From contig CBDBHR010000027.1 in assembly GCA_965205865.1 (NCBI GenBank), positions 64,001 to 128,000 on the forward strand: a DNA stretch of 64,000 nucleotides, read 5' to 3'. Each line of letters begins with the position of its first letter. Position 1 is the first letter of the stretch. The notes beneath the pieces were generated by a model. The model saw only the letters and a program-made list of their open reading frames with translations. It was not told where the DNA came from and searched no databases. Shown here piece by piece: positions 1,242 through 61,756 of the stretch. A program made the position numbers and the translations under genes. Origin of the DNA: a bacterium. Its GTDB lineage: Bacteria > SAR324 > NAC60-12.

Positions 1242-1327
1242 GCTCTTTTTCTTTGGTTTCTCACGACAACCACCTCCGTAGCAGAGACAGGCTCTTCCCC
1301 GTTTTCACGAGGACAAGTTTTGTGCGC

Positions 1328-2603: not shown

Positions 2604-2674
2604 TGTCATCCTCGCGCAGGCGGGGATCCAGGGGATTGAAGCGAACCCTGGATTCTTGTTCAAGCCAGGAATGA
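2604..2674. repeat. REP-like double hairpin GTCATCC..GGATCC / GGATTC..GGAATGAC
   Basis: Same family as the MITE core and 54898-54972. Confidence 0.7.
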
Positions 2675-9008: not shown

Positions 9009-9075
9009 TCCTCGCCTCCAGGATGGGGAACTGCTTCAGCGGTCCCCTGTCTTCTCTCTCGAAACTTCCTGATCA

Positions 9076-9132
9076 ACCTGAGTTCGACATAAATCTTCAA
9101 TAATATGAGTATCCTAGTGTATATGTCATCCT
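9076..9132 (+). mobile_element. Truncated left end of the ACCTGAGTTCG MITE
   Basis: Matches 22647-22703 and stops at the start of the REP hairpin. Confidence 0.85.
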
Positions 9133-22646: not shown

Positions 22647-22862
22647 ACCTGAGTTCGACATAAATCTTCAATAATATGAGTATCCTAGTGTATATGTCAT
22701 CCTCGCGAAAGCGGGGATCCGGATTTCAGTCTGGCTGCATACCTCCGGATTCCTGCTCCCTGCTTTCGCAGGGACAAGCTTCGCAGGAATGACAAGCTTT
22801 CTCTAAGATATGAAGATTCCATAACATATTGAATTTATTAAATTCTTATCTCGAACTCGGGT
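22647..22862 (+). mobile_element. MITE (IS982-like ends ACCTGAGTTCG...CGAACTCGGGT), 216 bp
   Basis: Terminal inverted repeats; flanking direct repeat TAATGA; four full copies in the window. Confidence 0.9.
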
Positions 22863-26064: not shown

Positions 26065-26255
26065 CTGGAATGATAAAGGGGAGGGGAATTCTTTTGGGAT
26101 TGCAAGAGACTGGAATGATAAAGGGGAGGGGAATTCTTTTGGGATTGCAAGAGACTGGAATGATAAAGGGGAGGGGAATTCTTTTGGGATTGCAAGAGAC
26201 TGGAATGATAAAGGGGAGGGGAATTCTTTTGGGATTGCAAGTGATTGGAATGATG
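26065..26255. repeat. 45-bp tandem repeat, 4 copies plus a partial
   Basis: Unit CTGGAATGATAAAGGGGAGGGGAATTCTTTTGGGATTGCAAGAGA at 26065, 26110, 26155, 26200. Confidence 0.95.
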
Positions 26256-44632: not shown

Positions 44633-45043
44633 GATGTTCTCCTTCTTCCGGGTTTTTAATAAGGATACGTTCCTAAAAGATCGCTTCAATTTGATCATAT
44701 TTCGTGATTATTATTAGAGTGAACAATATATGTCAACACTATATTTTGATGATAATTCGCTATATTTTGATGACTGCTTGACCATAGATTCACAGCGTTA
44801 GAAAGTGCCTGTTTTCACACCATCAAACCAACTACAGAGAACATTCGGTTCTTTAGGTTTACCAGTCCTCGAGGAACGTCGTTTCCTCCTCCGCCAGAAA
44901 GTCCTTTTCCAAGCGGGCGATCAACACAGGTTCAACCGCTCCAGTCGCATCATGATCCGGCAATAACGCGCAATCATGAGCACGCCTTTCAACTTCGGTC
45001 AGGATACGTTCCCTTTCAAGCAGTCATCTTTCGAGTCTGCTTA

Positions 45044-45201
45044 GGAACAAACCTTAAATAACCTGTAATTATTCCAATGGTGTGAGCAAAATTGGGGGAC
45101 ATGTACACCGCTGCGCATCCCAACTCTACTGTTTTATGCCTGCTGTTACGTGTACCCTAATTTTGCGTATCCATACTTCTAACTTATTTAAATTTCATTC
45201 C
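45044..45201. mobile_element. 158-bp MITE, TTA target duplication (second copy 55023-55180)
   Basis: Imperfect TIRs GGAACAAACCTTAAATAA / TTATTTAAATTTCATTCC, flanked by TTA on both sides. Confidence 0.85.
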
Positions 45202-45310
45202 TTAGTGATTTTCAACTTTCAAGGCAACATGAGCACCAACGGTAAATGACAAGAAATCGGCTTAAAACGAGGTGAACGTGGATTATTGACGTGTAGAAAA
45301 ATCTATGGTA

Positions 45311-45570
45311 ACCTGAGTTCGAGATAAGAATTTAATAAATTCAATATGTTATGGAATCTTCATATCTTAGAGAAACCTTGTCATTCCTGCAAAGCTTGTC
45401 CCTGCGAAAGCAGGGAGCAGGAATCCGGAGGTATGCAGCCAGACTGAAATCCGGATCCCCACTCCCCGCTCCCCGCTTTCGCGAGGACAGGTTTCGCGGG
45501 GACAAGTTTCGCGAGGATGACATATACACTAGGATACTCATATTATTGAAGATTTATGTCGAACACAGGT
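45311..45570 (-). mobile_element. ACCTGAGTTCG MITE, 260 bp
   Basis: TIRs; flanking direct repeat TATGGTA. Confidence 0.9.
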
Positions 45571-48252: not shown

Positions 48253-48363
48253 CCCAGTTCCCAGTTCCCAGTTCCCAGTTCCCAGTTCCCAGTTCCCAGT
48301 TCCCAGTTCCCAGTTCCCAGTTCCCAGTTCCCAGTTCCCAGTTCCCAGTTCCCAGTTCCCAGT
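48253..48363. repeat. Heptamer microsatellite (CCCAGTT) x ~16
   Basis: Perfect tandem run followed by degenerate units. Confidence 0.97.
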
Positions 48364-50381
48364 AATAAGTTCCAAGCAACAAGTCACAAGTCCCCAATCC
48401 CAAGTTCTACCCCCTTATATTATCTCGACATCAGGGAGAGATCCTTAAGATCCCTCCTTCCCCGTTCCAGAAATGGAAGGGCAATGGGGAATTTGGAAAA
48501 TCATCGGCGCCTGAGTGCGTCGGTTTATGGTTCATTGCCCAATCCTGGAGCCAATGAATCGGTTTTTTGATCACTCCAAAATGAAGGAGACCCAATGTGT
48601 AGAGGAATCCTCGACAACCTGCTTTCGGGGACGAAAGTAGTTTAAAGCAACTCGCAATCTTGTTTTTAATCAAAAAGCAGAAAGGAAAAAGATGGATAAT
48701 CAAAAAAGCAAATCAACCTTCGGTGCAACCCTGATGTCCCTCACCCTTTTGGTGGGGTTGAGCCTGGCAGGCGCCTGGTCTGCTGCGAAAATCCGATTCG
48801 CCCGATGGCGGGGGAATCGTTCTCAAAACCCTCAATTTAGAGAGGATCCCATGTTTTTTATTATGATGAAGAAATTTGTCGCCCCTCTCGTGGGGCTGAC
48901 CCCGGCAGGCTTCTGGTCTGCTGCAAAAATGCAATCCTTGTTGCTCACCCTCATTGTGAGCATCTTGGCCTTCGGGGGAAGTCTGACCGCTGCCCTTGCG
49001 GCAGAGATGGTCTGGGACCGCACCATCCGCAAGATGGTGGAAAAACCTCGCTATGGCGGAACCTTGACCTACGCCAACAATAATGAGGCGCCAAATACTG
49101 ACCCCTCGGTTGGGGGGCACGAAGCGGGATTTGCCGTTTCGGGGGTGCTGGAGAAACTCAGCATCGCGGACTGGGCCATCGACCGGAAGGTGAATGACCT
49201 GGTAAACGAGTTCCTGGCAGATGATCATTATGCACCAGCGCTGGCTGAAGGTTGGGAACAACCCGACCCCACTACGTATATCTTCCACATCCGCAAGGGG
49301 GTGCGTTGGCACAAGAAAGCCCCTTTGAATGGCCGAGAATTTACGGCACAAGATGTCGAATATAACTTTCACCGTACAACGGGTACGGGCAGCGGCTTTA
49401 GCGAACCTCCCGGCGTTAGCCAAGGACTCCCGCAGCTGGAATACGAATCGATCCGGGCGACCGACAAATATACCGTGGTTGTTAAGTTGAAGAAACCCCG
49501 CCTCGATGCGCTTACGATTCTCATCGAAGACACCTTTACCTTTATGGCCCCTCCCGAACTCATCAAGCGGGACGGGGATACGACGGATTGGCGGAAGCTG
49601 GTGGGCACCGGACCGCTGATGCTGACCGATTGGGTCGAAGGAAGCTCGATCACCTGGCAGAAAAATCCCGACTACTGGGGGGTCGACGAGAAGTTCCCAC
49701 AGAACCGCTTGCCCTATATTGATACCTTGAGGAGCCTGATCATACCGGATGAATCAGCCCGCGTCGCGGCCATGCGCTCGGGGAAGGTGGATTATATCGG
49801 TCACCAATCCAGATCGGCCCTCAAAGTCCCTGACATCGTGGAGAGCCTCCGGCGGACCAATCCCGACCTCCAAGTGCATGCGTATTATTTTCGCTCGAAT
49901 AACGGGATGGCCTATGATGTGACCAAGCCGCCCTTTAACGACATCCGGGTGCGCAAAGCCCTGCAACTGGCCCTGGATCTCGAAACCATCCACAAGGCCT
50001 TTTATAAAGGATTATCCATTGCGACCCCGCAAGGGATAACTGGGCATTTTCAGACCCAGTTTACGGTCCATTATGATCAGTGGCCCGAGGAAATCAAAGC
50101 GGGCTATCGCTACGACCCGGAGGCGGCAGAGAAGCTGCTGGATGAGGCCGGCTACCCGCGGGGCGCGGATGGTATGCGCTTTTCGACGAAACTGGATGGC
50201 GCCACGCACAACGGCTTCATTCTGGATTATTGGGCCATCGTCCAGGATTACTGGCGCAAAATTGGCATTCAGTCAGAAGTGATAGTCCATGAAATCCCAG
50301 ATTGGGTTGCTCGGGTTCGAAACCATACATTTGAAGGCATGACCTGGGCGATTGCGGCCGGCCCCTATCACCCTTTATCTA

Positions 50382-51533
50382 GTGTATTGCCTGTTTAATA
50401 CATTGTATTATTGGTCATTTGGTAGACAGGTTTGAGTTTGTTGATAATTTCTTCGGCAGTTTTAGTCCAGACATAGGGTTTTGGGTTGCGATTGTGTGTC
50501 TCGATGTAACTATGGATGGCTTCGGTCAACTCGAGCACGCTTTTGAAGGCGCCTCGTCGAATCCGTTCTGCAGTGATCTTGCCAAAAAAGCGTTCCACCA
50601 TGTTCAGCCATGAGGAGGAAGTAGGAATGAAATGCGGGTGAAATCGCGGGTGTTTTTTGAGCCATTCTTTCACCTTAAGATGTTTGTGGGTGGCGTAATT
50701 GTCCAAGGTAGTCTTGTCAATAAGACGCAGGAAGCGCAGATACTCTTGGTGTCGGTGCCGTTTTTCACAGCGAGCGAGCACTTCCCCTGTCTGCGTATTC
50801 AAAGCAGTAAACAGACAGCAGGTGCCATGACGGATATAATCATGAGTTCTGGTGCCATTGCGCCCTGGTTTCAGTGGCAGACCTGGCTGGGTGCGATCGA
50901 GTGCCTGGATTTGTGATTTCTCATCGACGCTCAAGACCAGCGCTTTCTCAGGAGGATTCATGTACAAACCGATGACATCTTTCAGTTTCGCAGTGAAATG
51001 CTTATCATGCGACAACTTAAATGTTTTTTCCAGATGAGGCTTGAGGCGATGGGCCTTCCATACTTTACCGACGGTTGTCTTGCCTACGCCAACTGCCTTG
51101 GCCATCGATCGCGTGCTCCAATGGGTACGGTCCTCAGGCTTCTCTTCAATGGTTTTCTTCACAATCTCCTCGATTTTATCCGCTCCATAAATGCGTGTCC
51201 TGCCAGGCCGCGGATCATCATTGAGACCTGTTATTCCTTTTTCAACAAAGCGCCGTCGCCACTTTCCAACGGCATTACCGCTGGTTCCAAGCGTTTTGGC
51301 AATTTCTTGATTCTTAAGGCCATCAGCAGCCAACAGGATGATGCGCGCACGACGAGTGTCTCGCATCGCTCCGGTATGACGGCGTGCGGTTTTGCCCAAT
51401 TCATCCCGTTCTTCCCGGGTCAGTTTTATACTTGGTGCTTTTCTCATGCTGTCTCCATATATGCAAAAAAAAGGACAGCTCGTAGTATAGCAAACCAAGG
51501 ATTTTTTTACACATTAATAAAAGAGCGACACAC
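50382..51533 (-). mobile_element. IS630-family insertion sequence, TA duplication
   Basis: Ends GTGTATTGC.../...GCGACACAC, flanked by TA inside a CTAG target. Confidence 0.92.
50395..51447 (-). CDS. IS630 transposase (short in-frame deletion before the second Asp)
   Basis: SVDEKSQIQALDR, YIRHGT, LDNYATHK, SSWLNMVERFF. Confidence 0.9.
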   Translation of the reverse strand: MRKAPSIKLTREERDELGKTARRHTGAMRDTRRARIILLAADGLKNQEIAKTLGTSGNAVGKWRRRFVEKGITGLNDDPRPGRTRIYGADKIEEIVKKTIEEKPEDRTHWSTRSMAKAVGVGKTTVGKVWKAHRLKPHLEKTFKLSHDKHFTAKLKDVIGLYMNPPEKALVLSVDEKSQIQALDRTQPGLPLKPGRNGTRTHDYIRHGTCCLFTALNTQTGEVLARCEKRHRHQEYLRFLRLIDKTTLDNYATHKHLKVKEWLKKHPRFHPHFIPTSSSWLNMVERFFGKITAERIRRGAFKSVLELTEAIHSYIETHNRNPKPYVWTKTAEEIINKLKPVYQMTNNTMY

Positions 51534-52158
51534 TAGTCTGAATGCACATTACAAAGGTGCCACCTTTAACCGTGGGCAAGTGGATGATCCCCAATATAAT
51601 GCCATCTTTGAGGCGATGAAAGCCGCGACCACCGTGGAGGAACTGGGGAAGTACTCCAAAGAGGCCAATCTGCGTATCGTTGAGCAGCACTGGCAGCTCT
51701 GGGGGCCTGTCGAACCCTCGTATAACTTCGCCCAACCCTGGGTCAAAGGCTACAACGGAGAATTCTATATGGGCGTCTGGAACAAAAATGCCGCCTACGT
51801 CCGCTTCTGGATTGACCAGGATCTGAAGAAGAAAATGGGATTTTAGATCCTCCTTCTCATTTTCCCCCTCTTCCACCAGGGGAGAGGGGACTTTCTCACC
51901 ATAAAATATCAATAATTATTGCTCACAGTATATGAGCTTCCAAGCGACAGGCAGTAAGAAAAAAAGAGATTTTCTCTCACGAGTGGTCCGACATTCCCAC
52001 TCCTTAGTTGTCGTGGAATGCCGCTTCGTCTGACTGGCTGGGTCTTAGCAGACGGAGAACTCATTCGGACAGCCAGCCCCAAAATGTGTCAGTCTTCGCT
52101 CGATACGCTAACAGTGAATTAGACTGCATGCAGGAATATTGGAAAAGACTGCAGGAAG

Positions 52159-52238
52159 GGGGTCAGGCCTTTGATTAGATGAAAAGGGAGCAAAAAAACC
52201 AGACTCGTTCCTAATCAAATAATCAAAGGCCTGACCCC
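52159..52238. repeat. Perfect 19-bp inverted repeat GGGGTCAGGCCTTTGATTA, 42-bp loop
   Basis: Arms at 52159-52177 and 52220-52238. Confidence 0.9.
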
Positions 52239-52350
52239 ATTAAAAAAGAAACGAGGACACCCCAAACAGGAGATAAGCAGGAAAGTCAGTTTGTCAAGTC
52301 CTTTCAATCAGTTAGGCCTGATTCGAGATAGATTCAGTGGGACACACCCG

Positions 52351-52854
52351 AAAAAACGCTGGACTGTGGAGCGAACATTCGCTTTTTGGCTCATGCCGAA
52401 GATGGACCGCAATATATCTTTTATAGCGGACCTCCATTGTTGCGCAATTCTCCTGATCCAAACTTGCTATAGGCTTTGCGCCGCGTAGTAGTGCTGAAAT
52501 CATGCCTTGTTGTTTCAGGGAAGGAGAGGATTTCCGCTCGTTTGATTCAAAATTGGCTGTGGGAGGGTTCCCGCTCGATCGATTGAACAATACCCCGGGA
52601 GGATGTGAAAACGATGGATTCTTCCCGGGAATCTTTTTTCAACGTTATTGAACTGAACGGCTTCTGACTGTCCCCGGATTTGAGCAGATTTATTGATTTT
52701 TTTTTTTGCGAATCCCGAATTTATTTTGCCTCAGGGGGTTGACATTGCATTTCATTGTGTTATAAACATGCCTTCGTTAAGTTGTGTTAATAAAAGAGAG
52801 GGTTTCCGATCGATTGAACAATATCGTGAGAGCACTTGAAAACGATCGATCCTC
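52351..52854 (+). repeat. SBP upstream module, copy 2, with a promoter candidate TTGACA-16 bp-TATAAA (52739-52766)
   Basis: Aligns with the reverse complement of 5111-5634. Confidence 0.85.
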
Positions 52855-53091
52855 CCCGGGAATCTTTTTTAATGATATTTAACTAAAAGGGTTTTTCAGA
52901 GACCTGAATAGTTGCGCTCTATCATAAGAAAGGTCATCATGAATATTAAACAATTCCTGGCCCCTATCTTGGGGCTAAACGTGGCAGGCATCGTGTCTGT
53001 TGCGAAAAAGTTTGTCCTCGCGAAAGCGGGGGTCCGATTCGCTCAATGGTATAGCGAATCTTCTTATTTCAGTTCAAGTGTAGGAGGAATC

Positions 53092-54864
53092 ATGGAAAAA
53101 AGTAAAACAAGAAAAATCCAATCATTGTTGTTAACCCTCATCCTGATGGTGGCTGCCTGCTGGGTCGTCCCGTCAGCCGCAATCGCGCAAGAGATGGTCA
53201 AAGACCCCGCAACCGGTGAAATGGTGCAGGCCCCACGATATGGCGGGACATTCACCCTTTCCGGGAAGTTCGAGCCGCCGCATACTGACATCTGGTTCGG
53301 GAGTGCTTCGTCGGCAGTACCTCTCAGTGCTGTTCTGGACAGGCTGGGTGTCGCAGACTGGGCAGTCGATCAGAATATATGGGACCACACATCTGACGTC
53401 TCGGCGGCCGCTCCCCTAAGAGGGCAACTGGCCGAAAGCTGGGAGACGCCCGACGCCACTACGATCATCTTCCACATTCGCCAAGGCGTGCACTGGCATA
53501 ATAAGGCACCGATGAATGGGAGAGAATTGACGGTCAAGGACGTCGAATTTCACTTTCACCGTCTCTTGGGTCTGGGTAGCGGTTTCACCGAAACGATGCA
53601 AGGCGCCGGCGATTTTGTCGATTTGCCCTGGAATTCGGTAACGGCCACCGACGATGGGACAGTTGTTTTTAAGCTGAAGCAGCCAAACCTCGATGCGCTC
53701 TCTAAGCTATTAAGCCACTGGGTAACAAGCGTAATGCCCCCCGAGGTCATCAAAGAACACGGCGACGTGAAGAATTGGAGGAACCTGGTGGGCACCGGGC
53801 CCTTCGAGATGAAGGACTGGGTCGAGGGCAGCTCTCTGCACTATACCAAGAATCCGGACTACTGGGGCCACGACGAAAAATACCCGGAAAACCGCCTGCC
53901 CTATGTGGACGAGGTGATTGTCAGGATCTTCCCGGATGAAGCAACAATTTTAGCGGCGCTGCGCTCCCGTAAGATTGATTATACGGGTGTGTACGAACAA
54001 GGGGCAATAGCGTCGCGCGACCAGATAGATAGTCTCCAAAAGACCAACCCCGAATTGGTGATGTCCCATTGGTATAATCGGTCGGAGACGTCTTTTGGTC
54101 TGAACCTGAAAATGCCGCCCTTTGATGACATCCGGGTGCGCCGGGCCATGCAGATGGCCCTGGACCTGGAGACCATCAACAATACCTACTATAAGGGGAC
54201 GGCGAAGCATACCCCGATGGGGTGGCAGAGAACCCCGGGGAGTTTCATCCCCTTTGCAGAGTGGCCCGAAGAGATCAAACAATACCATCAGTATGACCCC
54301 GAAGGGGCGAAGAAGCTGCTGGCTGAAGCGGGCTATCCCAATGGTTTCAAGACCGTCTACCACCACTACACCCCCTTCGATTTGAACTACTATGAAATAG
54401 CCAATCAATACTTCAGAGAGATTGGCGTTGAGGTAAAGACAAGGCTCGTCGACCGATCCGGTCTGTTCGGTTTAATCAGAAGTGGTGATTATGAAGGGAT
54501 GGTCACGGCGATTCAGGGCGTTGCCTGGGGCAATATGAACCCCATATCAATGAATCACTCATCGAGGGCTGGGTCCGATTGCTGCAACTACGGCGGAACT
54601 GCGGATCCGGATTATGATGCCATCGTTGATGCCGCTGCAGCCGCAAACACCTTTGAGGAGCAGCAGAGGCTGACGAGAGAGGCAGATTGGTACGGGATCG
54701 AAAGTGCGTGGCTTATCTGGGGTCCTATCAGCCCATCGTTTGTCGTGGTCCAGCCTTGGCTCAAAGGGTTTAACGGGGAAAATCAGTTGGGGGTGATCGA
54801 CTATCACCGGGTGCACGCCCGCATCTGGATTGATCAGGAGCTGAAGCAAGAAATGGGGCATTAG
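53092..54864 (+). CDS. ABC substrate-binding protein family 5 (SBP4), intact
   Basis: GGAGG RBS, signal peptide, PRYGGTF, VGTGPF, WIDQELKQEMGH. The frame stays open upstream to 52912. Confidence 0.92.
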   Translation: MEKSKTRKIQSLLLTLILMVAACWVVPSAAIAQEMVKDPATGEMVQAPRYGGTFTLSGKFEPPHTDIWFGSASSAVPLSAVLDRLGVADWAVDQNIWDHTSDVSAAAPLRGQLAESWETPDATTIIFHIRQGVHWHNKAPMNGRELTVKDVEFHFHRLLGLGSGFTETMQGAGDFVDLPWNSVTATDDGTVVFKLKQPNLDALSKLLSHWVTSVMPPEVIKEHGDVKNWRNLVGTGPFEMKDWVEGSSLHYTKNPDYWGHDEKYPENRLPYVDEVIVRIFPDEATILAALRSRKIDYTGVYEQGAIASRDQIDSLQKTNPELVMSHWYNRSETSFGLNLKMPPFDDIRVRRAMQMALDLETINNTYYKGTAKHTPMGWQRTPGSFIPFAEWPEEIKQYHQYDPEGAKKLLAEAGYPNGFKTVYHHYTPFDLNYYEIANQYFREIGVEVKTRLVDRSGLFGLIRSGDYEGMVTAIQGVAWGNMNPISMNHSSRAGSDCCNYGGTADPDYDAIVDAAAAANTFEEQQRLTREADWYGIESAWLIWGPISPSFVVVQPWLKGFNGENQLGVIDYHRVHARIWIDQELKQEMGH

Positions 54865-54897
54865 TACAGGTGTCACGAAGAAATTGAACTTCTTTGC

Positions 54898-54972
54898 GTC
54901 TTCCCGGACTTGATCCGGGATCCAGGAGTTTATGGGTAGGTCCCCTGGATTCCCGGGCAGGCCTGGAATGAC
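54898..54972. repeat. REP-like double hairpin downstream of SBP4
   Basis: GTCTTCCCGGACTTGATCCGGGATCC ... GGATTCCCGGGCAGGCCTGGAATGAC. Confidence 0.7.
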
Positions 54973-55022
54973 GCATCCAACTAAATATCCGCTCCTTTAA
55001 TTTGGGTCATTGATCATGATAA

Positions 55023-55180
55023 GGAATGAAATTTAAATAAGTTAGAAGTATGGATACGCAAAATTAGGGGACACGTATCAGCAGGCATAAAACAGTAGAG
55101 TTGGGATGCGCAGCGGTGTACATGTCCCCCAATTTTGCTCACACCATTGGAAGAATTACAGGTTATTTAAGGTTTGTTCC
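55023..55180. mobile_element. 158-bp MITE, copy 2 (inverted), TAA duplication
   Basis: Reverse complement of 45044-45201. Confidence 0.85.
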
Positions 55181-55436
55181 TAAGTTAAATCGTTTCCATG
55201 TTGACGTGGGAACAACAATATTGGCCGCTTTGCAGTTTATAGGCCGTGAAGCGGTCGAGTTTGTATTCCAACAAAAAGCCCTGGAAATTCGGGGACAGTT
55301 AAAAATATTTATCTTTAGGTCTCCCTGGTTTCCTGGTTCTCGATTCTTATTTGGTGATGGCTTCCGCGTTTCTTAAAATACGCTCATCTGCCAAAGAGCG
55401 ATCACTCAGAATATGCTCTCGAAATCTTTCTAAATA

Positions 55437-55652
55437 ACTTGAGATCGACATAAATCTTCAATAATATGAGTATCCTAGTGTATATGTCATCCTCACGAAA
55501 CTTGTCCCCGCGAAAGCGGAGAGCGGGGATCCGGATTTCAGTCTGGCTGCATACCTCTGGATTCCTGCTTTCGCAGGAATGACAAGGTTTCTCTAAGATA
55601 TGAAGATTCCATAACATATGGAATTTATTAAATTCTTATCTCGAACTCAGGT
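55437..55652 (+). mobile_element. ACCTGAGTTCG-family MITE, 216 bp
   Basis: TIRs (left slightly degenerate); flanking direct repeat TAAATA. Confidence 0.9.
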
Positions 55653-55699
55653 TAAATAACATTTCCCGTATCGTTCTGAGATGGGGTGACTCTGCCGTT

Positions 55700-58123
55700 C
55701 TATTTTCTCCGGTCCAGCAAGATCATCATGGCGGGTGCGATTAGAAAATCCGCCAGCAAGGCCAAGAGGATGGTCATTGCGGTCAGCCATCCGAAGTAGA
55801 AGAGATTTTTCATCGGAGAGAACATAAACAAGCCAAATCCGCAGGACAAAACCAGCGTGGTCAGCAACATCGCCCTTCCGGCTGTCTGTAAAGTAAGATG
55901 AACAGCTTCCGTGGGAGAACCGGTTTCTTCGAGGTAGCGGCGATAATTGTGCATGAAGTGGATGGTGTCATCGACCACCAGACCAATGGCGATGCTGCCA
56001 ATCAGCATGGAAAACATGTCCATCGGAATCTGCAACCACCCCATCATGCCAAGGGTAAAAAGAATGGGGAACAGGTTGGGAAACATGCTGAGCAGTCCCA
56101 TTTTCCAACTGTGGAGCAACAGTATCATCAACAATGAAATCAAAATTCCGGCAATTATGTAGCTGATAAGCGTACTGCGCATCATCAAATCAATGGAAGT
56201 CGTCAACAAGTAAAGCAATCCGGTTGTGGTAACCACGACTTGGGGACCGAATTCTTTGGCAAAGCGGGCCTCCATGTCAGCGACAAATTTCACATAATAA
56301 GCCGCATTGTCCCATGGTACCTTCAATGAAAATCGAGCTGTACGAAACTGGCTATCGACGACGTCCTGCAGCGCATCACTTCCGCTGTTTTCGAAAAGAA
56401 GAAATTCTTGGGCAATCAGTTGGGGATCATCAGGGATGGCGTAATAGTCGTCCTGGTTGTTGCGCAACGCCTTATTGATTTCTTTGAGGACGTGCGACAG
56501 CGTGATCACGCTGCCGACAAAACTTTCTTCGTTTTCACGTTGATACGACCTGGCATACTCAGCCATGGCGTCCAAGTGATTGAGCAAGTCGGGGTCGTGA
56601 AATCCGTTTTCCTTGCCGGAATCGATTAAAAACTCCAACATGATCGATCCTTGCATGCGTTGATCGATCCAGTCACTGGCGATACGCACCGGATCCTCGA
56701 GAGCAAACCAAGTCACCGGATTGTGGGCAAATCGAATCTGGGGGATACCTGTGATGAAAAAAAGCGTCATCCCGATGCTCACCAGAAGAATTTTAATGGG
56801 ATGCCGGCTGGAAAATTCAGCAAACCCCCTCAACAAGCGATCAATGAATCCCCGGGACTGGTTGTGGTGACCAGATTTGTTTTCTTTGATGGGGACCAGG
56901 GCAATCAAGGTGGGCAGGAAGAGCAAGGTGACGAGCAAACAAAGCATTACCCCTGCCCCGGCAAAAATACCAAGATCGGCAACCGGGGCGACTTCCGCCC
57001 TGGCAAATGACCATAAACCGACCGCCGTGGTCAGGCTGGTCATTACGACGGGCAGGGCGGAATGCGACATTGCCGCCACCATCGCCTCTTCTTTACCGCG
57101 CCCTTTTCTGATTTCCACAAAGAACAAGGCGAGGATGTGCACGGATGCTCCGATTCCCACGGCAAGCAGAAAAGAAGGAAGGATCTGGCTTGGCAGTTTG
57201 ATCGCCTTGTCGAAAATACTCATCAAACTCAAGGTACTGACCAGAGAGCAAATGACGATGAGAAGGGGGAGAACCGTTCCTGAAATATGGCGCAGCAGCA
57301 AAAAAAGAAAGATTGCGATACTGAGGATGGCCAAGGTCATGAACCGTTGTAAGTTTCTTATTAAATTGCGCTTGAGGTTGTCAATGACAATCGGTGAGCC
57401 GGCCAATAGAATTTGAAAATCATCGCCTTCATATCGATGAATGATGTCTTTCACCACCTGCAATAGATGGTGGATCTGTTCATCCGTAAGCAGTTGCGAG
57501 TCCTCACCGCTATGATCCGTCTCGACAGAATCGCTCACCGGACCGGTTTCATCGGAAATGAGAAAGCCCTCCTCTTCATCCGTGGCTTGATAAAGACTGG
57601 TTCTCAAGGTCATGGTGGTCACGGTTCCATCTTCGGAAATCAGCAAATTTTTATAGATCCTGTTCGACATCACCCGTTCTCGGACCCTGCTGAACTCTTC
57701 CTCGCTTCCGGGAAACTCTTCCAGCAAATCCTCCACAATCAATTCGTCCGCTTCTCCATAAGTGGACCGGGCATTGAGCAAGCTGGTTATTTCTTCCAGA
57801 AAAGGCACATGCTCTTCAAGCTCTTCATGTAGATTTCTGAGGCGAGTGAGGAAGGATTCGGAAAATATTTGCTCGGATTCGATAGCCAGCAGGATCACCT
57901 CGTCGCGGCCAAAGTCCTCGCGAAATTGTTCATAGGCTTGCAATACCGGATCATTCTGGTGGAAAAATCCTTCCGTCGAGGTGTCGATCTTTATCTGGGG
58001 AAGTTGACTCCAGAGCATGGCAAACAAGACCATCCAAGCAGCCAGAATTGATTTGGGATGACGGAATTGGAAACGGGTCAATACGGCAAAGAATAATTCC
58101 AATCGTTTTCTGGAAATTTTCAT
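55700..58123 (-). CDS. MMPL/RND family transporter
   Basis: Two repeats; MTSLTTAVG and GLVVDDTIHF motifs. Confidence 0.9.
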   Translation of the reverse strand: MKISRKRLELFFAVLTRFQFRHPKSILAAWMVLFAMLWSQLPQIKIDTSTEGFFHQNDPVLQAYEQFREDFGRDEVILLAIESEQIFSESFLTRLRNLHEELEEHVPFLEEITSLLNARSTYGEADELIVEDLLEEFPGSEEEFSRVRERVMSNRIYKNLLISEDGTVTTMTLRTSLYQATDEEEGFLISDETGPVSDSVETDHSGEDSQLLTDEQIHHLLQVVKDIIHRYEGDDFQILLAGSPIVIDNLKRNLIRNLQRFMTLAILSIAIFLFLLLRHISGTVLPLLIVICSLVSTLSLMSIFDKAIKLPSQILPSFLLAVGIGASVHILALFFVEIRKGRGKEEAMVAAMSHSALPVVMTSLTTAVGLWSFARAEVAPVADLGIFAGAGVMLCLLVTLLFLPTLIALVPIKENKSGHHNQSRGFIDRLLRGFAEFSSRHPIKILLVSIGMTLFFITGIPQIRFAHNPVTWFALEDPVRIASDWIDQRMQGSIMLEFLIDSGKENGFHDPDLLNHLDAMAEYARSYQRENEESFVGSVITLSHVLKEINKALRNNQDDYYAIPDDPQLIAQEFLLFENSGSDALQDVVDSQFRTARFSLKVPWDNAAYYVKFVADMEARFAKEFGPQVVVTTTGLLYLLTTSIDLMMRSTLISYIIAGILISLLMILLLHSWKMGLLSMFPNLFPILFTLGMMGWLQIPMDMFSMLIGSIAIGLVVDDTIHFMHNYRRYLEETGSPTEAVHLTLQTAGRAMLLTTLVLSCGFGLFMFSPMKNLFYFGWLTAMTILLALLADFLIAPAMMILLDRRK

Positions 58124-61562: not shown

Positions 61563-61756
61563 ACCTGAGTTCGAGATAAGAATTTAATAAATTCAATATG
61601 TTATGAAATCTTCATATCTAAGAGAAACCTTGTCATTCCTGCGAAAGCAGGAATCCAGAGATATGCAGCCAGACTGAAATCCGGATCTCCGCTTTCGCGA
61701 AGATGACATATACACCAGGATATTCATATTATTGAAGATTTATGTCGAACTCAGGT
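61563..61756 (-). mobile_element. ACCTGAGTTCG MITE, minimal 194-bp form
   Basis: TIRs; flanking direct repeat TACATA. Confidence 0.92.

Follow-up and report, generated by a model that had tools for sequence, protein, structure and literature searches.

The 64,000-nt stretch of DNA analysed here (the window) contains four complete copies of one MITE (ends ACC...GGT), with lengths of 194, 216, 216 and 260 bp, and raises the question of what the extra DNA in the longer copies is and how it got there. Each MITE has two internal hairpins, and all of the extra pieces in the window are 22-mers, each within the GAAA loop of one such hairpin. The sequence-only reading had put this as a rule, with lengths of 194 + n x 22 and the extra DNA always a 22-mer at the GAAA loop of a REP hairpin; the rule describes all copies in the window and breaks down genome-wide, where 15 of the 48 full-length copies carry a different insert of +16 in the right arm and four of the nine doubly filled left arms measure +37 instead of +44. 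Elhai and colleagues are said to have described, in 2008, the repeats SDR1-8 of the Nostocaceae as hairpins of 21-27 nt inserted into minitransposons and into their own copies.

The unit and its places in the window

The 22-nt unit, RCTTGTCCYYGCGAAAGCRGGG, is placed at GCGAA|AGC without target duplication. Its ends (RCTTG...GGG) are unambiguous in the right hairpin of the MITE, and the boundary is therefore drawn one base to the left of the earlier call. The 260-bp copy (45311..45570, minus strand) consists of the 194-bp backbone and three units, and contains two inverted CGTC-type hairpins. The right host hairpin (45379..45426, plus strand), with a TGTC tag and a ATTCCTGC stem of the CGTC-1/NTS type (consensus as reported in PMC11893778 and PMC3733652), is split by one unit at 45394..45415 (plus strand), a G-head CCCTGC variant, and the left host hairpin (45453..45522, minus strand) is split by two nested units. 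The outer one (45464..45507, minus strand; CCCCGC variant) is interrupted at its own loop, with halves at 45493-45507 and 45464-45470, and encloses the inner unit (45471..45492, minus strand), a CCTCGC variant that differs from it at two bases; the claim that both hairpins of this copy are filled, with one insert inside another, was confirmed.

In the 216-bp copy at 22647..22862 (plus strand) the left arm is empty and the right hairpin holds a unit at 22758..22779 (minus strand), and in that at 55437..55652 (plus strand) the left hairpin holds a unit at 55500..55521 (plus strand) and the right arm is empty; the arms had been assigned correctly before (at about 22760 and at 55501-55522), and the boundary shift moves the latter position by one base. 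Both arms are empty in the 194-bp copy (61563..61756, minus strand), and a truncated left end of the same MITE lies at 9075..9130 (plus strand). Outside the MITE, a unit variant at 53010..53031 (plus strand) sits in the leader of SBP4, a family-5 solute-binding protein ORF (52912-54864), whereas the homologous site in the neighbouring solute-binding protein ORF SBP3 (48766..48795, plus strand) is empty, as is a second module starting at 48904. This presence and absence had been noticed before; the position was corrected, and the net gain is +24 nt, which keeps the frame, rather than +22. An unrelated repeat carries a variant with a compensatory stem change (GT-GAAA-AC) at 1297..1318 (minus strand), absent from the earlier note, and a free-standing empty CGTC-type hairpin at 2604..2631 (plus strand) is a potential target.

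An end-anchor scan of the whole genome (G000) returned 52 complete MITE copies, plus 19 left ends for which no right anchor matched. Among the 48 copies without internal deletion, the number of units in the left arm is 0, 1 or 2, and the right arm is empty or carries the 22-mer or the +16 insert; all nine combinations occur, and there is one +7 allele. Direct repeats of 6-8 bp flank 37 of the 52 complete copies, in agreement with the ACC...GGT ends and 6-9 bp target duplications of the IS982 type, to which we take the MITE family to belong. A rough end-pair scan of the genome, which is 92% complete, found no cognate transposase between MITE ends. Since 40 of the 120 SNP pairs among the 16 informative columns of the MITE backbone are incompatible, there is no usable backbone tree for counting gains. 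The micro-insert of net +16 (e.g., C3:5344 and C30:405621 in G000) has a different head and replaces the loop by a CCCTGC-GTAC-GCAGGG palindrome, and similar loop replacements carry a CCGGACTTGATCCGG hairpin. Other repeats of the window are a 165-bp one, present in inverted orientation and 98% alike at 45040-45204 and 55020-55184, approximately 100-250 bp from two MITE copies, and two tandem repeats, one made of perfect 7-nt units (CCCAGTT; 48253-48371) and one of 45-nt units (26065-26244). Contigs from four of 24 public runs break at repeats over 48500-56000.

Empty alleles, nesting and spread of the unit

The degenerate 22-mer has 55 exact matches in the genome, against none for the reversed control and 1.3e-5 expected from base composition. 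In 111 stems compared, one pair is C-G in 91, T-A in 12, T-G in four and C-A in four, and further compensatory stem variants are present, so that the unit appears, like an SDR, as a dispersed element of 22 nt (within 21-27 nt) with a conserved hairpin maintained by compensatory changes. The 120 looser matches fall into 32 flank classes, 11 with an empty allele and 21 without, the latter including some chance matches or junction fragments. The 11 classes represent six host families, and in six of them filled and empty alleles differ by exactly 22 nt. The MITE left arm is filled in 29 copies and empty in 23, the right arm filled in eight and empty in 27 (an exact 22-nt difference); the unit itself, as a host, is filled in five cases and unfilled in 47; the leader of solute-binding protein genes is the fourth family; a repeat ending in TAAGCGCACCAA|AGGAG is filled once and empty four times, again with an exact 22-nt difference, and the sixth family, one further repeat, gives one filled and one empty allele. 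The TAAGCGCACCAA|AGGAG repeat (the TAAGCGCAC host) has no likeness to the unit, which excludes both slippage and direct-repeat deletion as the explanation there. Filled and empty alleles at several unrelated sites, together with insertion into itself and into minitransposons, are the pattern known for SDRs. Two singleton sites lie in intergenic DNA that is too diverged in the congener G001 for an orthologous allele call. A unit-like 22-mer in the 3′ non-coding end of a 32-33 copy IS-like element (C25:45611 and 31 more in G000, and also in G001), presumably IS1380 judging from its ends and protein, was discarded as an independent site because no empty allele was found among 35 alignments.

The sequence-only reading had proposed that filled and empty alleles be compared, and had named two outcomes that would speak against it: that the short forms arose by deletion only, or that the unit never occurs at independent sites. 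Neither was found, since empty alleles exist in six unrelated host repeats, and a deletion-only or slippage-only origin fails for the same reason. Its proposal of a self-targeting micro-element that recreates its own target is supported as well. The unit carries within itself the site CYYGCGAA|AGCRGG and is thus a matching recipient for further units, and nested units occur in both genus genomes searched (G000 and G001), with inner variants that differ at the same site. We conclude that the 22-mer is, with high probability, a mobile unit, and that it is a real self-targeting micro-element, SDR-like in its behaviour, although we do not claim identity with SDRs.

The same unit enters translated DNA. 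The leader modules of the window (52912-53100 and 48692-48950) have a reading frame continuous with that of the gene, in which the unit adds approximately eight residues. A scan of such leaders gave 142 motif matches, of which 49 were parsed (30 of them empty; one 30-nt spacer was dropped as a false parse); net inserts were +24 in eight copies, +45 in eight (nested) and +23 in one, so that 16 of the 17 filled alleles keep the frame, and 12 of these 16 are open for more than 580 codons onward. The 16 frame-keeping copies stem from few events. From these data it seems that in translated DNA a junction persists only if it keeps the frame. The inner unit at one and the same leader site is CCCCGC in G000 and mostly CCCTGC in G001.

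The exact 21-nt core of the unit was found in at least 110 GTDB stretches, and the 80 titled records among the matches listed belong to approximately 16 phyla, all non-cyanobacterial, in contrast to the reported confinement of SDRs to the Nostocaceae. Among the same matches, including G001 loci, the 102 distinct flanks show A at -2 in 76, at -1 in 77 and at +1 in 90, and C at +3 in 79; a guide-type pairing between the head base and the +3 base of the target was unsupported on inspection of these flanks. When the unit was removed from the 64 outside site classes, the junction fell in a hairpin loop in 27 (shuffled mean 14) and was enclosed by a stem of at least 5 bp in 15 (shuffled mean 3.4); the loop position is enriched and not obligatory. 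At several alphaproteobacterial loci the match (22-mer + ACCCAG) is a stem variant of a repeat and not an insertion. Head-to-head double units sharing two bases are common elsewhere (L058, L073, L046, L333 and many G054, G090 and G069 loci), the base at -3 covarying with the head base (T with A, C with G), and head-to-tail tandem copies occur in other organisms (L105, L217).

Among 40 relatives the unit was found only in the congener G001. Of 150 genomes of another class, five have it: four of the 25 with the host hairpin and one of the 125 without. The other 21 hairpin-bearing genomes of that class lack the unit, some of them with 90-170 hairpins, and G113 (93 hairpins) and G233 (47) lack it although they also encode Ssn. 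Since hairpin-rich genomes lack the unit, it is acquired and not made locally. Viral contigs gave only four exact matches and therefore do not support phages as the vehicle.

Host hairpins, Ssn nucleases and a proposed route of copying

The hairpins of the MITE match the NTS consensus (PMC11893778) and the CGTC-1 REP (PMC3733652), as far as these sources give them: the host hairpins have a YGTC tag, an 8-bp stem starting with AT, a 4-nt loop and a CCA-like tail, and form head-to-head dimers. The unit, which has neither ATY nor the tail, departs from the CGTC-1 REP/SRM pattern of an 8-bp stem with AT at positions 1-2 and a CCA tail; it is built from CGTC-REP/SRM hairpins and parasitic on them, and is not a canonical member of them. 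CGTC-type REPs (NTS/SRM) are reported to be the sites of Ssn GIY-YIG nucleases (PMC11893778). In the same report, SsnA of Neisseria frees a 20-nt fragment from the NTS75 oligonucleotide, corresponding to a cut 4 nt 5′ of the CGTC tag and outside the loop, and has no action on RNA or dsDNA. According to how the sequences are aligned, this cut is 1 or 4 nt out of register with the unit boundary.

The genome has 13 GIY-YIG matches; 12 small ones were inspected, most of them flanked by host hairpins, and among these one of 95 aa has an intact motif, the rest including a family carried between hairpins and several broken genes. The 95-aa protein (P0001; PF01541, E=7e-17) corresponds to the single-domain GIY-YIG proteins of about 94 aa flanked by SRM hairpins that define Ssn, and its cleavage activity is predicted; an NCBIfam search of it returned no family. 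The search for a linked enzyme had been suggested by the earlier reading. Ssn matches (E<=1e-12) were found in 32 of 50 unit-bearing genomes, taken from 50 of 65 candidate loci, as compared to four of 39 unit-free relatives; in the class sample, 19 of 145 unit-free genomes have one. Among hairpin-positive genomes only, Ssn is present in three of four unit-bearing and nine of 21 unit-free ones (p=0.32), so the association may reflect the shared hairpin only, and for this reason we infer the moving enzyme rather than observe it. With the query used, 18 of the 50 unit-bearing genomes gave no Ssn match, and the sole GIY-YIG match of G115, with 13 units, is a 458-aa frame. Unit-type inserts do occur in hairpins beside ssn genes (L166, L182, L183 and C30:870714 in G000); no Ssn gene was found within 400 bp of 110 outside unit loci among the matches listed. 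An autonomous form, with a gene inside the loop of the unit, was not found, and no unit bounds the 30 outside ssn loci or the Y1 and IS110 loci inspected, nor is any reverse transcriptase (RT) gene inspected so bounded.

Some further structures of these loci are worth recording. G000 contains another type of unit, in which a similar head is joined to a CCGGACTTGATCCGG hairpin (C27:467, C28:96596-115855 and C30:870714-870810; 17 loose matches); it is inserted in other loops, including one beside the intact ssn gene. The hairpin-ssn-hairpin cassette is itself a multi-copy element between short inverted ends (C30:468656, C23:86554, C28:277554, C27:136449 and others in G000), and most of its copies are either broken or altered by substitutions at or close to the motif. 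GTGCG, the start of a group II-like intron, lies at the tag of host hairpins in the MITE and in an ssn cassette (C29:587265-588623, and upstream at C23:188291, in G000).

The base 3 nt before the junction gives information on how the unit may move. In 54 filled loops of G001 it is T in 33, G in 19 and A in two (the reversed control of this search gave 18 matches, and a few of the 54 rows may be chance), while in empty hairpins of G001 it is G in 12 of 12. The contrast in T (Fisher p=1.4e-4) is overstated by the test because many T copies ride on the MITE, and the number of independent events behind the T junctions is lower than 33. Unfilled T-loops in G001 are at control level (2 vs 2), and the upstream T is found in hosts of three stem types as well as in free-standing hairpins. 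In G000 it is absent from all 60 junctions. Since a base outside the unit changes with filling, these results point to copying from a filled donor and not to the pasting of an excised circle, and the absence of the upstream T from G000, together with its other dominant inner variant at the same leader site, implies separate waves of the unit in the two species. The idea that the T came from a local head-to-head double unit was tried and rejected, such double units having no match in G000 and G001 and 56, 25 and 10 in three other genomes.

The reading that we rank first, to which we give about an even chance, is a DNA-templated homing with a probable Ssn nick. The 22-mer would be a non-coding micro-element living on CGTC-type REP hairpins (NTS/SRM), made of a constant 7-base head fused to the repeat's inner hairpin, and would spread by a homing-like copy reaction. 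A break in single-stranded DNA, which we attribute to an Ssn GIY-YIG nuclease, would occur at an AA|A site, mostly in a hairpin loop; by means of a few shared bases the free end would anneal to a filled copy at another place, a polymerase would copy the unit from this DNA template, sometimes with a few flanking bases, and the copied strand would rejoin the target. The unit could in turn serve as its own recipient and become nested, and new lineages were probably reached inside hairpin-nuclease-hairpin cassettes and MITEs. In favour of this scheme are the empty alleles in unrelated hosts, the flank base that changes with filling, the differing inner variants of the two species, the hairpin-rich genomes without the unit and the unit-type inserts beside ssn genes. 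Against it stand the cut of SsnA, which is not in the loop, the unrelated targets, which short homology explains poorly, the loss of the Ssn association among hairpin-positive genomes, the 18 unit-bearing genomes without an Ssn match, the outside loci with no Ssn gene nearby, the absence of the upstream T from G000 and the proportion of outside site classes, 27 of 64, that place the junction in a loop.

Ranked next, and unlikely in our judgement, is an RNA route, in which a group II intron RT, with template switching on the 5′ side, would reverse-transcribe a transcript containing the unit at a nick in the target. An RNA intermediate has reportedly been proposed for the cyanobacterial SDRs. 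Here, 11 RT-domain matches (10 over the cut-off), the GTGCG intron start in the tag of host hairpins, the preponderance of junction changes on the 5′ side (T, +1, +2, -1) and the tolerance of T-G wobble on the sense strand (23 of 111 at one position) are in keeping with such a route; none of the unit copies has a linked RT or promoter, however, the nearest RT being 2.7 kb away, T-G pairs form in DNA hairpins too, and the known enzyme of the host repeat, SsnA, is DNA-only and ignores RNA in what PMC11893778 reports. The flank co-conversion, the nine arm combinations with the 40 of 120 incompatible backbone pairs, and the loss of the Ssn signal after conditioning on hairpins would all agree with host repair only, that is, a fork stall or SbcCD-type cut at the stable GCGAAAGC mini-hairpin followed by gene conversion among repeats, with no repeat-specific enzyme; this leaves unexplained the exact 22-nt boundaries at targets that share only AA|A with the donor and the constant head on many different hairpins, and we consider it less likely than the RNA route.

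Improbable, and placed lower again, is a peel-and-paste reaction, in which an HUH (IS200/RAYT-like) or IS110 enzyme would excise the 22-mer as a circle and integrate it at AA|A. A short tag before a hairpin is a feature of IS200/IS605 ends, a likeness that counts for this route, as do the precise ends without target duplication and the 15 Y1 and six IS110 matches of the genome. A circle, however, cannot carry the upstream T, and the five Y1 (of 15) and three IS110 loci inspected are not bounded by the unit or the host hairpin (one has an unrelated hairpin pair); CGTC repeats are also reported, in the available part of PMC3733652, not to flank tyrosine transposase genes. Last comes the view that nothing moves, the pieces being products of local slippage or quasi-palindrome correction, or ancestral long forms shortened by deletion. 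Its support consists of the 15-nt and 7-nt slippage alleles (the four +37 left arms and the +7 allele), the alphaproteobacterial stem variants with ACCCAG, and the right-arm insert of the MITE, which resembles its own upstream flank minus ATT (three bases); the earlier statement that the CTTGT flank is not a simple local duplication accordingly finds its support in the other host repeats and not in this arm. The clean empty alleles in unrelated hosts, the differences between inner and outer units, the published 4-nt empty loop (PMC11893778 and PMC3733652, in the parts available) and the hairpin-rich genomes without the unit speak against it, as do four MITE copies with the right arm filled and the left empty and the three-base difference between the inserts of the two arms, so that we regard it as largely refuted and very improbable. 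On the same two grounds, copying from the opposite MITE arm was rejected.

Relation to known repeats and meaning

With SDRs the unit shares size, hairpin, a precise site and nesting in itself and in minitransposons. It differs in spanning approximately 16 phyla among the matches listed, in targeting CGTC-REP loops and not HIP1, and in the donor-linked flank change; SDR5 is reported to insert precisely in HIP1, and SDRs were not found outside the Nostocaceae among HIP1-rich cyanobacteria, in the portions available of PMC4390886 and PMC5861425. The unit reuses the inner stem and loop of the CGTC-1 REP/dRS3/NTS/SRM repeats (Di Nocera 2013, PMC3733652; Chenal 2025, PMC11893778, as far as these describe them), without the outer AT pairs and the CCA tail of CGTC-1 REP/SRM and with a head of its own, and the genome, like the Ssn system, has single-domain GIY-YIG genes of 94-95 aa that lie between such hairpins. 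No loop insert is described in the available parts of PMC3733652 and PMC11893778, where the movement of DNA by Ssn is a hypothesis only. A literature search that included literal sequences, and covered sources other than subscription papers, bioRxiv supplements and two supplements of PMC11893778, found no description of the unit or of SRM-loop inserts.

Two further systems offer a comparison, the REPINs and BIMEs with RAYT (Bertels and Rainey 2011, PMC3116915) and the homing of group I introns and inteins. REPINs and BIMEs are non-autonomous hairpin repeats that presumably move by an enzyme acting in trans; theirs are a GTAG tag, an HUH enzyme and larger, paired REPs, whereas here a single 22-mer is concerned, and GTAG-tagged repeats flanking a Y1 HUH gene have no counterpart in the five of 15 Y1 loci inspected, none of which is unit-bounded. 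In the homing of group I introns and inteins a filled allele is copied into an empty one and flanking bases are co-converted. The unit would resemble them in both respects, but has no endonuclease, no splicing and only a few bases of homology, and it restores its target instead of destroying it.

The 22-nt unit may rank among the smallest mobile DNA elements, and we propose it as a candidate. More tentatively, it may represent a family of elements of 22-24 nt, each made of a head and a hairpin and found across phyla. These would be hyperparasites of the Ssn/SRM system that borrow the Ssn nick, home into loops by short-homology copying, regenerate their target and travel from phylum to phylum in the nuclease cassette. 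CGTC repeats have been reported without a dedicated transposase. Insertion of the unit is a route by which inserts of 7-8 residues enter the N-terminal regions of secreted proteins. By what means elements of 20-30 bases are mobilised has been debated as an open question since the cyanobacterial SDRs. Here the unit and its target are defined, a 95-aa protein is a candidate enzyme, and the upstream T, which predicts flank transfer, can serve as a natural marker, so that the question becomes testable with oligonucleotides and a reporter. If driven by Ssn, the reaction may provide a minimal tool for writing short sequences at hairpins; and if the unit is indeed a hyperparasite that borrows Ssn, it would represent homing without an encoded endonuclease at the smallest known size, and the first testable mechanism for SDR-like elements.
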